DNA from: a virus
Lineage: Duplodnaviria > Heunggongvirae > Uroviricota > Caudoviricetes
Reading direction: 5' to 3' (one strand)
DNA: 4,330 bases
IMG/VR virus record: IMGVR_UViG_2706794667_000008
Span: 1 to 4,330 of that record
Below the pieces are notes generated by a model, which was not told the origin of the DNA, made no database searches, and worked only from the letters and a program-made list of their open reading frames with translations. Shown one piece after another: positions 24 to 4,330 of the stretch. Position 1 is the first letter of the stretch; each line of letters opens with the position of its first letter. The position numbers were made by a program, and so were the translations under genes.

Positions 24-60
24 GGAAAGAAAAAAGGCCATCAGCAAAACTCTGATGGCC
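24..60 (-). terminator. Intrinsic terminator on minus strand (copy 1 of the terminator upstream of the holin in copy 2)
   Basis: Inverted repeat GGCCATCAG (36..44) / CTGATGGCC (52..60) with 7-nt loop; on the minus strand the stem is followed directly by TTTTTTCTTTCC (complement of 24..35). No T-run on the plus side. Confidence 0.6.
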
Positions 61-105
61 TGAATCACCTTTACCAATATTGTATGAAAAAACACGCACG
101 ACTAA

Positions 106-134
106 TTGACAATAATTTTCATTTCCATTAAAAA
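106..134 (+). promoter_or_regulatory. Candidate sigma70 promoter, plus strand (antisense to phage late transcription)
   Basis: TTGACA (106..111), 17-bp spacer, TAAAAA (129..134); AT-rich context. Sequence pattern only, no expression evidence. Confidence 0.25.
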
Positions 135-538
135 AGATCGCGTAGCATTCTTAATTCATGAGGAACTTTACCCGCCAGCAATCTGAGTAGCGAAAGCTGT
201 TCATCCCCAATGTTTTTGCTGGCGGGTCCTTTTTTCTACGGTCCTCCTCCCCGGAGGGGGGCATTTCATTATTTTTCTAATCGTTACTGGTGAGAAGGCG
301 GAAGAAAAAGCCAGTTCTTCGCCCCTAAATAACAGCATGATTCCAGTCCATGCAAAATCTGATTTCCAGCTCACACATACCGAGCGCTGTACAAAAAACC
401 GCCAGCCAAGGCAGTTAAGAGTGTGTTCCCGGGGTTTGCTTAGAATATTTTGTAAGTTGTCCGAAGAGATATTTACAACACCAGAATGATGCATTATCAG
501 TCCCCTGCCAGAGGTTCACTACGTAACCTGACCGACAA

Positions 539-851: not shown

Positions 852-1059
852 CTGCTTCGGTATACGTTTTACCGAGCATGATGTCTTTTCCGGTGTGTCC
901 GTGACATACAGTCCATACACCAATGATATCTTTGTATGGTATGTAGCTGACACCTTCCAGACCATCGTTACCACCTGGGCCAGTGATTAACACAGATGCT
1001 ATAGCAACAGCCCCACCACCAATAGCAGCTGCAACAGCCTTGCGTAATGATGGCGACAT
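852..1059 (-). pseudogene. SAR endolysin (phage 21 R / RrrD-like lysozyme), N-terminal 69 codons only, fused to IS911 antisense sequence
   Basis: [69 protein letters not shown] resembles the N-terminus of lambdoid SAR endolysins; after codon 69 the frame reads into IS911 antisense (VSISMRCS...) until a stop at 760. Start overlaps the holin stop (TAATG). Confidence 0.8.
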
Positions 1060-1274
1060 TATTCACCTCTCGCAGCCTTACGCTTGTCTTCTCTTATTTT
1101 GAAATACAGATTTGTCAGATAAGTCAGAAGCCCCAGAAGCAGACTTCCCAGCACACCAATCGCAGCCCACTGTGATGGACTGACCTGATCCAACCACTGC
1201 AAAAACCAGTAGCCGGCACTGCCGGCGGAGGTGCCGTAGGCAATGCCTGTTGATATTTTTTCCATCTGATACAT
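1059..1274 (-). CDS. Class II holin (pinholin), phage 21 S / EssD-like, 71 aa
   Basis: [71 protein letters not shown]; two predicted TM segments, charged C-terminus, Met1/Met4 dual-start motif; sits immediately upstream of and overlapping the endolysin start. Confidence 0.9.
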
Positions 1275-1303
1275 ATCCCGCCCCCCGACAGACCTGTGCT
1301 ATC

Positions 1304-1340
1304 GGAAAGAAAAAAGGCCATCAGCAAAACTCTGATGGCC
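1304..1340 (-). terminator. Intrinsic terminator on minus strand, 30 bp upstream of the holin start
   Basis: Same GGCCATCAG / CTGATGGCC hairpin as 24..60, followed on the minus strand by TTTTTTCTTTCC. Confidence 0.6.
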
Positions 1341-1385
1341 TGAATCACCTTTACCAATATTGTATGAAAAAACACGCACGACTAA

Positions 1386-1414
1386 TTGACAATAATTTTC
1401 ATTTCCATTAAAAA
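1386..1414 (+). promoter_or_regulatory. Candidate sigma70 promoter, plus strand (repeat copy 2)
   Basis: Same TTGACA-17-TAAAAA motif as 106..134. Confidence 0.25.
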
Positions 1415-1954
1415 AGATCGCGTAGCATTCTTAATTCATGAGGAACTTTACCCGCCAGCAATCTGAGTAGCGAAAGCTGTTCATCCCCAATGTTTTTGCT
1501 GGCGGGTCCTTTTTTCTACGGTCCTCCTCCCCGGAGGGGGGCATTTCATTATTTTTCTAATCGTTACTGGTGAGAAGGCGGAAGAAAAAGCCAGTTCTTC
1601 GCCCCTAAATAACAGCATGATTCCAGTCCATGCAAAATCTGATTTCCAGCTCACACATACCGAGCGCTGTACAAAAAACCGCCAGCCAAGGCAGTTAAGA
1701 GTGTGTTCCCGGGGTTTGCTTAGAATATTTTGTAAGTTGTCCGAAGAGATATTTACAACACCAGAATGATGAATCATCAGTCCCCTGCCAGAGGTTCACT
1801 ACGTAACCTGACCGACAATGCACCATTCTGGTGCTGAAAAAAGAGCACTGGAACTGCAACAAAACAACATCACAGAACAGGAGATGGTAAGGAGTCAGAC
1901 ATTCCCACACAATATTGTGTCAGTGCAAATAACAACCTTCGTCTCAAATCTCGC

Positions 1955-2029
<75 letters not shown>

Positions 2030-2032
2030 ATA

Positions 2033-2108
<76 letters not shown>

Positions 2109-2110
2109 GC

Positions 2111-2187
2111 TGGCCCACCACCGAGGACTCGAACCTCGCACCGTCAACTTAGAAGGTTGATGCTCTATCCGGATGAGCTAGTGGTGG
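2111..2187 (-). tRNA. tRNA-Arg (anticodon UCU)
   Basis: CCACCACTAGCTCATCCGGATAGAGCATCAACCTTCTAAGTTGACGGTGCGAGGTTCGAGTCCTCGGTGGTGGGCCA: anticodon stem TCAAC/GTTGA, loop CTTCTAA, T-loop TTCGAGT, 7-bp acceptor with an unusual C1-G72 pair. Confidence 0.7.
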
Positions 2188-2188
2188 T

Positions 2189-2265
2189 TGGTGGCCCTTG
2201 CTGGACTTGAACCAGCGACCTGGCGATTATGAGTCGCTCGCTCTGACCAACTGAGCTAAAGGGCC
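2189..2265 (-). tRNA. tRNA-Ile2 (anticodon CAU, ileX/ileZ-like); elongator Met not excluded on anticodon alone
   Basis: GGCCCTTTAGCTCAGTTGGTCAGAGCGAGCGACTCATAATCGCCAGGTCGCTGGTTCAAGTCCAGCAAGGGCCACCA: loop CTCATAA; acceptor and T-arm closely resemble E. coli ileX as recalled. Confidence 0.75.
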
Positions 2266-2361
2266 GGAGGCAGAATAATAACCATATGTCATCACATCTG
2301 CAAACTCATCTGACCACCAGCACGTTTAACGTCCTGTGCCGTTTTTCAGGTATAAAAAAAC

Positions 2362-2387
2362 CCGCATAAAGCGGGCTCTTTCAAATG
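2362..2387 (-). terminator. Intrinsic terminator directly downstream of the Q-like gene (tR'-like late terminator)
   Basis: On the minus strand: GCCCGC, loop TTTAT, GCGGGT, then a 7-T run; 68 bp downstream of the Q stop, upstream of the tRNA array. Confidence 0.8.
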
Positions 2388-2454
2388 TCCATGTCTGCTA
2401 TTCGCCTCGCGGTACAGCTTTGCGAAGCGTACAAGAATTGAAGCAGTTTTTACG

Positions 2455-3009
2455 TCAAAAAGCAATAACTTTTTTCTCTATACCAAAAGCCATAACCATT
2501 GGTTTGTACAAAATAAATTCTGCCACCTTTAGCCAATGCTCAATGCGTCTTTCACAGGTTCTTAAACTCCATTTCGGGTGTGCATCATTCAGCAGTTCAG
2601 CCATTTTGCGTTTGGTCATCCCCCGCCCCTCATACCGTTGCCGAAGGACGCTAATCAATCCTGGATGCTCTGCCAGCACCTCACTTATGACCCGATCAAT
2701 ACATAACGCCTCTGCATCAGTACAATGCGCCAGCCAGCTCTTTTGCTTACCGTTAATCATATCCCGCAAAAAAGCCTCAAGTTCAGACTTGTTCAGACCT
2801 GCTTTTTTCATCCTCCGGAGCGCCTCGTTAATTGCCGTTTTTGTCAGCTTTTTAGAGGTCAACATCAGGTTAAACATATTCCCCGTCTTACCGCCACCAA
2901 TATACGACCAGCGCCCCCACATACGTAGTTTTCCCTGAATCCAGACACTTTCCAGCGTGGTGAGACGAAGGTGTTCTCCGCTTTTTCCTGTATTCGTTGG
3001 GTAAATCAT
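2455..3009 (-). CDS. Putative late-gene antiterminator Q-like protein, 184 aa
   Basis: Starts MIYPTNTGKSGEHLRL... at ATG 3009 preceded by AGGAGGG; the 3129 start in the ORF track is an unsupported extension overlapping the upstream gene. Position between the nin-region genes and the tR'-like terminator matches lambdoid Q; family assignment is from context and recollection, not alignment. Confidence 0.6.
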   Translation of the reverse strand: MIYPTNTGKSGEHLRLTTLESVWIQGKLRMWGRWSYIGGGKTGNMFNLMLTSKKLTKTAINEALRRMKKAGLNKSELEAFLRDMINGKQKSWLAHCTDAEALCIDRVISEVLAEHPGLISVLRQRYEGRGMTKRKMAELLNDAHPKWSLRTCERRIEHWLKVAEFILYKPMVMAFGIEKKVIAF

Positions 3010-3296
3010 AAATATCCCTCCTTTCTCCAGATTTCTTGTGTGCGAAAAACACCTTCTGCATGCATCAGGCGTAATTCTTCTTTGGTGTAATCGCTGGTTT
3101 TTACCCGCCCGTCGATTAAATCGTGGCACGAGCTACAGGCAATCGCTGCCTGCATATCGTGTGGCTTTATCGCTGTTCCGCACGTTCCCGCCAGTCGGTA
3201 ATGCGCCAGCACAGACGTTTCCGGATCGTGATTGCAGTAGCCAGGAATTCTGACGGTGCACATCTGCCCCCGCGCCGCTTTACGTAAATCCACCAT
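3006..3296 (-). CDS. YbcO-like lambdoid nin-region protein (DUF1364 family, Cys-rich), 96 aa
   Basis: MVDLRKAARGQMCTVRIPGYCNHDPETSVLAHYRLAGTCGTAIKPHDMQAAIACSSCHDLIDGR... shares the DLRKAARG / VRIPG-CN / PETSVLAH / CGT / IACS-CHD pattern recalled for DLP12 YbcO. Stop overlaps the Q start (ATGA). Confidence 0.75.
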   Translation of the reverse strand: MVDLRKAARGQMCTVRIPGYCNHDPETSVLAHYRLAGTCGTAIKPHDMQAAIACSSCHDLIDGRVKTSDYTKEELRLMHAEGVFRTQEIWRKEGYL

Positions 3297-3895
3297 TACG
3301 CAAACTCCAGCAGCTGCGCGGCCACATTTTCGACTTGTTCCGGAGAGGAAAATTTACGGAACAGAATCCAGTTCCACAGCACATTCAGAACAGATTTATA
3401 AACCTGCTGAAACTCGGTTTCGTCCATATTCGCAAAAGCGATGGATTTTGCCCGACGCCCGCGGCTACCGTCCGGATAAAAATGTTCGGTGTAAAATCCA
3501 GCCTGAATGGTTACCCACTCGCGAAAAGCCTCAAACGACTTTAGCAATGCCGTATCCCGGGTTCTGCGTGTCGCAACTGTATTCAGATATTGCTCTGCGG
3601 CTTCGCTCAGAGCTGGCGTATGTTCCCGACCTACTGATTCGCACAGGTAATCAACGAAACCAGACAGCAGTTCTCGTTCGCGAGGCGTGATCGCCCCACC
3701 GACCGGAGTCCAGTAATCGAATCCCAGTTGCAGGAGTTTGAAAAAACGCTTGTGGAATGCGTAGTTACGCACACGCTTAAAGTCTGCGTGTATCCACTCA
3801 CCTGTTTTGATTTGATGCAGAAAATCGCAACTCTCCGGCGTCGCCGGGAGAAGTAATCCGGAAGAGGTTTGTTTGATCAGTTGTATATGCGCCAT
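3296..3895 (-). CDS. Lambdoid nin-region protein, probably DUF1367 family, 199 aa
   Basis: ORF MAHIQLIKQTSSGLLLPATPESCDFLHQIKTGEWIHADFKRV... with GGAGAA upstream of ATG 3895; stop overlaps the next start (TAATG). Real-gene call is firm; the family name is from memory of prophage annotations and needs a profile search. Confidence 0.55.
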   Translation of the reverse strand: MAHIQLIKQTSSGLLLPATPESCDFLHQIKTGEWIHADFKRVRNYAFHKRFFKLLQLGFDYWTPVGGAITPRERELLSGFVDYLCESVGREHTPALSEAAEQYLNTVATRRTRDTALLKSFEAFREWVTIQAGFYTEHFYPDGSRGRRAKSIAFANMDETEFQQVYKSVLNVLWNWILFRKFSSPEQVENVAAQLLEFA

Positions 3896-3966
3896 CGTAG
3901 TTCTCCGCTGGCGCAGTAGAATGGGTGTTCAGCCCGTTATGTAGTATACCAGAATTAATGCCAATA

Positions 3967-4179: not shown

Positions 4180-4230
4180 GATGCCTCCAGGTTTATAAGT
4201 ACAAACGGTTATATCAACATAGAGACAAAA

Positions 4231-4330
4231 GGTGATGCTGCCAACTTACTGATTTAGTGTATGATCGTGTTTTTGAGGTGCTCCAGTGGCTTCTGTTTCT
4301 ATCAGCTGTCCCTCCTGTTCAGCTACTGAC
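4231..4330 (+). mobile_element. IS1 left end (inverted repeat plus start of insA), runs off the window
   Basis: GGTGATGCTGCCAACTTACTGATTTAGTGTATGAT... recognised as the IS1 terminal inverted repeat and leader; one difference from the form I recall (tgatCgtg versus tgatGgtg). Confidence 0.85.
4286..4330 (+). CDS. insA: IS1 InsA, N-terminal 15 codons (partial, continues beyond window)
   Basis: GTG GCT TCT GTT TCT ATC AGC TGT CCC TCC TGT TCA GCT ACT GAC translates VASVSISCPSCSATD, the recalled InsA N-terminus. Confidence 0.8.
   Translation, partial: MASVSISCPSCSATD

Follow-up and report, generated by a model that had tools for sequence, protein, structure and literature searches.

A conserved plus-strand hairpin upstream of the holin gene of a lambdoid prophage, a candidate small-RNA gene of the moron slot

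Organization of the locus

The DNA analysed here, 4330 bp long and referred to below as 'the window', covers the part of a lambdoid prophage that is concerned with late regulation and lysis, and its late genes lie on the minus strand. The first, in order of late transcription, is a DUF1367/NinB gene (3895..3296). This is followed by a DUF1364 gene (3296..3006), and then by the gene for a DUF1133 protein (~3009..2455), which occupies the position of Q and is termed here the 'Q-like gene'. A short, hairpin-terminated leader comes after it (2440..2355), then four tRNA genes (2265..1955), a non-coding stretch and, finally, the lysis cassette. The first gene of the cassette encodes a class II holin of 71 amino acids (1059..1274, minus strand; assigned from its open reading frame and from the RefSeq annotation of a collinear locus). 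Only the 5' part of the lysozyme gene is present (852-1059, minus strand); it is interrupted at ~850 by a fragment of IS911, comprising the left end and part of orfA (539 to ~850), which adjoins a duplicated copy of the element that is the subject of this report. The end of an IS1 element (from ~4230 to 4330) forms the right end of the window. Read along the minus strand, the order is Q-like gene, tR'-like hairpin, tRNAs, candidate element, holin.

The leader at 2355-2440 (minus strand, ~90 nt) lies directly downstream of the Q-position gene, folds strongly (z = -4.4), and terminates in GAAAGAGCCCGC-TTTAT-GCGGGTTTTTTT. It matches the Rfam family isrK weakly and below threshold (19.9 bits versus a gathering threshold of 50), and looks like the short pR'-tR' transcript of this prophage, of the 6S, StxS or IsrK type. 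The tRNA genes (1955-2304 region) have the anticodons CAT, TCT (Arg), TGT (Thr) and TCC (Gly); the one with CAT is Met according to ARAGORN and Ile according to RefSeq. A promoter-like site (2304..2275, minus strand) lies immediately upstream of these genes, and a minus-strand terminator (1670-1696; AACTGCC-TTGGCT-GGCGGTT TTTTTG) lies ~260 nt downstream of them; the 260-nt trailer is unannotated.

The non-coding stretch occurs a second time, to the left of the IS911 fragment: positions 1-538 correspond to 1281-1818, and 1-300 and 1281-1580 are 100% identical. Positions 1-540 are also >99% identical to the locus of other strains, where the stretch is found singly. E. coli FDAARGOS_944, for example, is collinear with 852-3912 and has one copy. 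Since other strains are collinear and have only one, we regard the duplication as a local, IS-associated rearrangement. The holin gene belonging to copy 1 of the element (106-236) lies outside the window, and only copy 2 (1386-1517) adjoins a holin gene here. To judge from its load of IS elements (IS911, IS1) and from the closest matches, the genome looks Shigella-like. At the right edge of the repeated unit there is a 31-nt imperfect inverted repeat (1752-1782 and 1810-1840; 77% complementary, 27 nt apart), and in copy 1 (472-502) the IS911 junction, 538/539, falls inside its loop.

The candidate element

The first-pass annotation, made from the sequence alone, proposed that the repeated stretch contains an antisense small RNA, comprising a promoter-like motif with a 17-bp spacer, a perfect 11-bp stem and a T-rich tail, all on the plus strand and convergent with late transcription, and that the unit recurs at 1386..1516. 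Inspection finds each of these features in its place. The unit recurs as an exact copy (1386-1517), and the minus-strand orientation of the late genes does make the element convergent with them. The promoter-like site consists of TTGACA (106-111), a 17-nt spacer (112-128) and TAAAAA (129-134), and is identical in the two copies (106..134 and 1386..1414, plus strand). Compared with the sigma-70 hexamers, the -35 matches at six of six positions and the -10 at four of six. A promoter scan of the window did not call the site at 106..134, because its -10 lacks a T at position 6 of the hexamer.

The candidate RNA would be ~95-97 nt long, with both of its predicted ends on the plus strand at 141..237 in copy 1 and at 1421..1517 in copy 2, the copy that adjoins the holin gene. 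It would comprise a single-stranded 5' part of 29 nt, an outer stem of 12 bp, an inner hairpin of 8 bp and a U-tract (230-235). The outer stem is perfect over 11 bp (171-181 with 216-226), or over 12 bp if A170-U227 is counted. The base of the stem is rich in G+C (CCCGCC/GGCGGG), and a U-tract of at least six begins 0-2 nt after it. The tail that follows the stem reads TCCTTTTTTCT: C228 and C229, then T230-T235, C236 and T237. The inner hairpin, formed by 184-191 (TGAGTAGC) and 196-203 (GCTGTTCA), includes a G.U and a U.G pair among its 8 bp, and is capped by GAAA (192-195). A mini-hairpin of the form AGC-GAAA-GCT had been suspected in the loop; a hairpin is indeed present there, but it is larger than that.

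Perfect inverted repeats of at least 11 bp, with loops of up to 40 nt, appear in 2.2% of 1000 dinucleotide shuffles of the 3050-nt non-duplicated part of the window; stems of this kind that are followed, in addition, by a T-rich tail appear in none of the 1000. Folding in silico (RNAfold) gives a stable structure for 141-237 on the plus strand (-31.6 kcal/mol, z = -4.1), equalled by none of 200 shuffles. A terminator scan does not list the hairpin at 170-237, because it has a 34-nt interior in place of the usual loop of 3-8 nt. A second plus-strand hairpin (241..262), followed by ATTTCATTATTTTT, is confined to the window-type lineage and contains a variable poly-G run; its pairing is gone in relatives that are 87% identical, and it is not conserved in the other lineages. 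The G-run itself (251-260; 1531-1540) has from four to six G among near-identical window-type copies, and reflects either homopolymer slippage or sequencing noise.

The first-pass annotation noted only frames of 10 to 28 codons without an RBS within the element, and the short open reading frames are indeed non-coding. The 10-codon frame has no Shine-Dalgarno sequence, and all four of the substitutions that it has undergone in the 87% relative are non-synonymous. A coding reading of the longer frames on the minus strand was rejected; these are broken by insertions and deletions that are not multiples of three.

Which strand

Being a perfect palindrome, the outer 12-bp stem can form in RNA of either strand. 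The conserved structure might, then, belong to the minus strand, as part of the leader of the late mRNA: an RNase III or RNase E site, perhaps, or an antitermination or stability element, preceding the terminator ahead of the holin gene. Three independent points favour the plus strand for the hairpin. First, only on the plus strand does the stem run into a T-rich tail; its minus-strand counterpart leads into TAAAGTTCC, and what was the conserved T-tract is there a run of A upstream of the stem, for which no role is evident. Second, the adjacent G.U and U.G pairs of the inner helix on the plus strand become A.C and C.A on the minus, and the helix is interrupted there by two adjacent mismatches. 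Third, the minus strand folds less stably (-28.3 kcal/mol, z -2.7) than the plus strand does, although this z value also lends something to a minus-strand structure.

Two natural single-base changes in the outer stem cancel one another as evidence of strand. The G-to-A change of the plasmid lineage produces a G.U pair on the minus strand versus an A.C mismatch on the plus, as a minus-strand function would predict. The stem change in an IMG/VR prophage (L125), in contrast, produces a G.U that pairs on the plus strand only. A neighbouring hairpin at 353..335 does look specific to the minus strand; the element is retained, however, where the late operon is gone. We consider a function on the minus strand improbable.

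Distribution and conservation

Matches to positions 95-275 turn up at 912 chromosomal and 643 plasmid places, spread over 1427 of the 5426 complete E. coli genomes, and these places are almost never annotated. Carriers include ColV/IncF virulence plasmids (next to iss), pathogenicity islands of the ST131, ST73 and CFT073-like kinds, and Shigella prophages. INPHARED, with 50,697 phage records, has no copy of the unit among its phage isolates. The limits of homology define a conserved, exchangeable module of ~350 bp that carries the candidate (26-378 in copy 1, 1306..1658 in copy 2). Some of the prophages that carry it are intact; elsewhere it survives in remnants that have lost the holin gene, beside iss on ColV plasmids or within UPEC islands. 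Copies of the window type (98-100% identity) occur in Shigella flexneri and in some E. coli prophages. A different prophage, in which a DNA methyltransferase gene takes the place of the tRNAs upstream, has an 87% relative ahead of its class II holin gene.

In two remnant lineages (~85% identity) the module abuts a fragment of Rz, and holin and lysozyme are absent. On ColV-type plasmids these remnants adjoin iss and iroBCDEN, and in UPEC islands their neighbours are IS elements near papI. Rz-fused remnants in pMS7163A (locus L002, 3318-4344) and ATCC 25922 (locus L003, 3743-4344), for example, lie beside iss and iroBCDEN or ~2 kb from papI. The deletion junction is identical in plasmid and island contexts, pointing to what was probably a single ancestral remnant that spread later. 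Searches for more divergent relatives, which covered 62 holin loci of species representatives, IMG/VR (with two anchor patterns) and metagenomes (with a loop pattern), yielded only four or five closely related lineages; the 14-mer anchor search of IMG/VR returned mostly chance matches.

Four lineages, all found by BLAST of the whole unit, were compared. They differ from one another at 2.9-7.4 of every 100 positions in the hairpin and tail (170-237), and at 7.5-30 of every 100 in the flanks (26-105 and 238-330). The disparity is significant in five of the six lineage pairs, which are not independent of each other (Fisher p 2e-5 to 2e-4). The hairpin and U-tract are under stronger constraint than the flanks, and are the best-conserved part of the module. 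The arms of the outer stem, which lay outside every search pattern, are 97-100% conserved. The 34-nt interior is 94% conserved, a figure biased in part by the search patterns, and its conservation is seen in the BLAST-derived set as well. The predicted single-stranded 5' part (141-169), at 7-17 differences per 100, fares no better than the flanks.

The promoter-like site is conserved unevenly. All but one of the 22 variants (21) retain TTGACA at an unchanged distance from the T-A of the -10; the -10 itself varies by lineage, and reads TAAAAA, TAAAAG or TAAAGG. The exception (L278, metagenome contig OJWO01000210.1) has had its upstream region replaced. Unrelated DNA lies upstream of 8808-8828 in that locus, equivalent to upstream of ~145, the predicted start, and this DNA, too, has TTGACA, ~13 nt before the junction. 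Compensatory changes in the stems of homologues, proposed originally as a check on the structure, did not appear. The stem is essentially invariant, with one G.U and one A.C change, and a covariation test has no power for that reason.

These comparisons bear on the simplest alternative of all, that there is no functional RNA, and that the hairpin marks a DNA-level site or a slow-evolving stretch that hitch-hikes with the holin gene and iss. The lineages are few and related, and most copies are clonal remnants, as such an explanation would have it. Divergence within the hairpin is three- to ten-fold below that of the immediately adjacent DNA in the same lineages, however, and arms 34 bp apart are atypical of a protein operator. 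We think it very improbable that the conservation arose in this way.

Neighbouring terminators

The module also carries terminator-like hairpins on the late, or 'sense', strand. The first is an intrinsic terminator of 10 bp, six of them G-C, with a TTTTTTCTTTC tail (35..61 in copy 1, minus strand); in copy 2 (1315..1341, minus strand) it lies ~30 nt upstream of the start codon of the holin. In a crude scan of 51 Enterobacteriaceae prophage loci (L005-L066), a sense terminator was found 40-50 nt before the start of the class II holin gene in 28. By the same crude measure, such holin-proximal terminators are common whatever the sequence upstream of them. Among antisense terminators upstream of the 51 holin genes only the PasA type was clear, a lower bound, for the scan also missed the hairpin of the window.

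A second peak of conservation occurs at 331-378 (1611-1658 in copy 2), where the two remnant lineages differ at one position in 48 nt. It contains another minus-strand hairpin, GCATGGACTGGAATCATGC (335..353 in copy 1). The 87% relative has two substitutions in this hairpin (C-G to U.G, and G.U to G-C), with which pairing survives on the minus strand alone. This hairpin may be the 3' end of a sense-strand RNA that converges on the candidate, resembling the 'convergent sRNA pairs' of Tree et al.

With terminator-like hairpins pointing in both directions (61..35 and 353..335 on the minus strand, 170-237 on the plus), the element might be an insulator and nothing else. The hairpin would then be an intrinsic terminator that blocks plus-strand, antisense transcription into the tRNA/Q region, and any RNA that ended there would be a by-product. 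The transcription so blocked would originate in iss, bor or dedA, beyond the lysis cassette, or at spurious promoters; together with the two minus-strand terminators, the hairpin would make up a two-way cassette in front of the lysis genes. Genes oriented in this way, dedA and iss, are found beyond the lysis cassette in related prophages, and the conservation of hairpin and tail, while the -10 and the 5' part vary, also fits. A plain terminator would have no need, however, of a conserved interior with a GAAA-capped 8-bp hairpin, nor of a perfect -35 that is lost from L278 alone, where it was replaced along with the surrounding DNA. The equivalent slot in E. coli E2348/69, moreover, carries a genuine small RNA. 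This is the main rival to the interpretation we prefer, and we judge it unlikely.

Position relative to the lysis genes

Among the 103 loci with enough flanking sequence, a holin gene is present in 36 and absent from 67. A separation of 185-189 nt between holin start and inner hairpin is found in 35 of these 36; in the other, where the match to holin is partial, the distance is 200 nt. The element lies ~150-245 nt upstream of the holin start, and points away from it.

The first-pass annotation described the RNA as antisense to the leader of the lysis genes, and regulation in cis is one way to account for so constant a distance. Over its whole length, at 147-243 nt upstream of the holin start, the RNA would be complementary to the late leader. 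By pairing or colliding with leaky sense transcripts it could guard against premature lysis, or tune the timing of it, and the sense terminator that lies between the RNA and the holin gene would suit a 'lysis guard' module of this kind. We find this part of the proposal doubtful. The RNA overlaps neither the ribosome-binding site nor the start codon of the holin, and in more than 1400 genomes the element survives intact as a remnant that has lost holin and lysozyme; a purely cis-antisense role is less likely for both of these reasons. In lambda, Q-modified polymerase reads through terminators during lytic growth, and it would be expected to pass through here as well. PasA and PasC, furthermore, which occupy the equivalent slot, act in trans. 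Action in cis strikes us, on the whole, as rather improbable. Duplexes predicted between the candidate and the initiation regions of holin, lysozyme, the Q-like gene and iss are no better than those of shuffled sequences.

A small-RNA gene in the moron slot

The interpretation that we prefer, and to which we assign a probability of roughly 0.5, is by analogy with other prophages. On this view the element would be a gene for a small RNA, located in the moron slot of the lambdoid prophage and transcribed in the opposite direction to the late operon; its product would be bound by Hfq and would act in trans. The slot in question would be the interval between the Q/tRNA region and the holin gene. 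A promoter of the sigma-70 type, with a perfect -35 (TTGACA) and a weak -10, would start the RNA near 141 (1421 in copy 2), and transcription would end after ~95 nt at an intrinsic terminator, consisting of the G+C-rich 12-bp stem with the U-tract (230-237). We propose that the RNA is made in the lysogen, since it would have no need of Q-dependent late transcription. Hfq would bind by way of the 3' hairpin and U-tail, by analogy with PasA/PasC and AsxR/AgvB, and by the same analogy the RNA would act in trans, on host or island mRNAs or small RNAs. As the interior of the hairpin is strongly conserved and the 5' part is not, a surface for pairing or for protein binding likely lies inside the hairpin, as has been proposed for PasA. 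The intact element in holin-less remnants is compatible with a role that is independent of the lysis genes.

Certain observations count against a small RNA. The -10 is weak, drifts between lineages, and has no T at position 6, and the 5' part (141-169), where a seed would be expected, is not specially conserved. The 34-nt interior is atypical of an intrinsic terminator, and there is no covariation. Retention in the remnants could be due to hitch-hiking with iss, and no phage isolate carries the unit. The more ambitious form of the proposal, in which the element gives rise to an expressed, Hfq-binding regulatory RNA that is unannotated in about a quarter of complete E. coli genomes and is kept, once the lysis genes have been lost, for trans regulation of host or virulence genes, is one that we put forward tentatively and with considerable reserve.

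In pathogenic E. coli, host regulation is rewired by small RNAs of prophages (AsxR, AgvB and PasA-D, for example), the genes for which are clustered in the moron slot by the lysis genes. If the candidate proves to be a small RNA, the slot next to the holin gene of lambdoid prophages would become an 'sRNA cassette' position of general use, in which unrelated RNAs (PasA/PasC and the candidate) can replace one another, and the concept would widen from a few homologous families to a positional class. The candidate would also be a potential regulator on Shigella prophages, on ExPEC islands and, beside iss, on the ColV plasmids of avian and human ExPEC. Should it turn out to be no more than a terminator, a conserved, two-way insulator will have been described in front of the lysis genes, which is still useful.

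Comparison with known systems

Rfam 15 has no match to the candidate in searches with the window (E up to 1) or with 1-540 and 100-280 (E up to 10). The only matches on 1-540 are generic and weak, and fall on the minus-strand terminator (26-113). AsxR and AgvB, both of them Rfam families, have a conserved 3' region of ~42 nt, and membership of the candidate among them was rejected when 100-280 gave no match at E up to 10. Nothing relevant came from full-text searching of the literature, whether with the stem and loop sequences or for small RNAs of ColV, iss or Shigella. The candidate lacks annotation, and no description of it came to light in the searchable literature.

The hairpin resembles a canonical intrinsic terminator in its G+C-rich stem and in the U-tract that directly follows it, on the plus strand only. 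It differs in its interior, which is 34 nt long and contains the inner 8-bp hairpin, whereas the loop of a canonical terminator is 3-8 nt. PapR (RipA) of UPEC is an island-encoded, Hfq-dependent small RNA that has been reported from ExPEC, EHEC and Shigella strains (Khandige et al. 2015, PMC4546395), and was compared with the candidate because one remnant copy of the latter sits ~2 kb from papI. The two are not the same; PapR has a different sequence, which begins CGGGCTGAAGTCCGGAAGTT and finishes TCTCCCAGCGCGGGCTTTTTTT (ends defined by primers).

The moron site downstream of pR' in EHEC prophages contains genes for Hfq-bound small RNAs that are often convergent, among them AsxR and AgvB, which are antisense 'anti-sRNAs' (Tree et al. 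2014, PMC4104026). Antisense and convergent Hfq-bound small RNAs are typical of this slot (PMC4104026). A 2025 study identified AsxR and AgvB in hlyF-positive STEC genomes. The candidate is like AsxR/AgvB (EcOnc01-03) in its location in the moron slot downstream of pR', in its orientation antisense to the late or moron transcript, and in its Rho-independent terminator. Its arrangement recalls the convergent pairs, too, in that the minus-strand hairpin at 353..335 faces the plus-strand terminator at 170-237. AsxR and AgvB are shorter, at 51-60 nt, the conserved 3' region accounting for 42 nt, versus ~95 nt for the candidate.

The closest parallels are PasA and PasC (EcOnc51/52), Hfq-dependent small RNAs of EPEC and EHEC lambdoid prophages (PMC8550237; bioRxiv 10.64898/2026.05.13.724894). 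Pearl Mizrahi et al. (2021, PMC8550237) validated both in EPEC E2348/69, using Northern blots and RIL-seq, and Zhu, Shabalina and Storz (2026, bioRxiv 10.64898/2026.05.13.724894) deal with them as well. Each has its gene between an upstream moron gene and the holin gene. The gene for PasA (743499 to 743415, minus strand) lies between sialate esterase and holin, in the orientation '> < >' (PMC8550237, table S6). Like the candidate, PasA and PasC lie directly upstream of a class II holin-lysozyme cassette, antisense to the late genes. They are of similar size (79-85 nt versus ~95 nt), lie at a similar distance from the holin gene, and share with it a 3' stem-loop with a U-tract, and an upstream TTGACA. 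Both PasA and the candidate read away from the holin gene, the 5' end of the former being 214 nt from the holin start and that of the latter ~147 nt. A sense-strand terminator lies between RNA and holin at the PasA locus, just as in the window (61..35 and 1341..1315). The sequence GCCAGCA is present in both, in the 5' arm of the terminator, which is where the seed of PasA has been placed, a likeness that we offer as a lead only. The candidate departs from PasA and PasC in its hairpin, which is much longer (58 nt, with an inner hairpin), and in its distribution: it is found in Shigella, ExPEC islands and ColV plasmids, whereas PasA and PasC are found mainly in EPEC and EHEC.

Homology between the candidate and PasA/PasC was looked for in several ways, and rejected in each. 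Smith-Waterman and global alignments, run with the window sequence and with its 87% relative, gave z values against shuffled controls of at most 2.5, inconsistent between the two variants; PasA and PasC aligned with one another, for reference, at z = 17.8. A covariance model of the candidate (R1), which scores 122.4 bits on both copies in the window, has no match in the PasA/PasC loci (L067, L068, L029) at E up to 10. Membership of the Pas family is defined by blastn to the E2348/69 genes, and blastn at a word size of 7 found nothing outside the holin-lysozyme DNA.

Across that DNA, the window and the PasA locus of E2348/69 share 86% identity, and the homology ends 18 nt upstream of the holin start. 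Because it stops there, before either RNA is reached, we regard the candidate and PasA as alternative, non-homologous modules of one slot. Alternative modules at a single insertion point are the usual form that mosaicism takes in lambdoid phages. The candidate is probably a new member, unrelated in sequence, of the known class of prophage moron-site small RNAs to which PasA, PasC, AsxR and AgvB belong.
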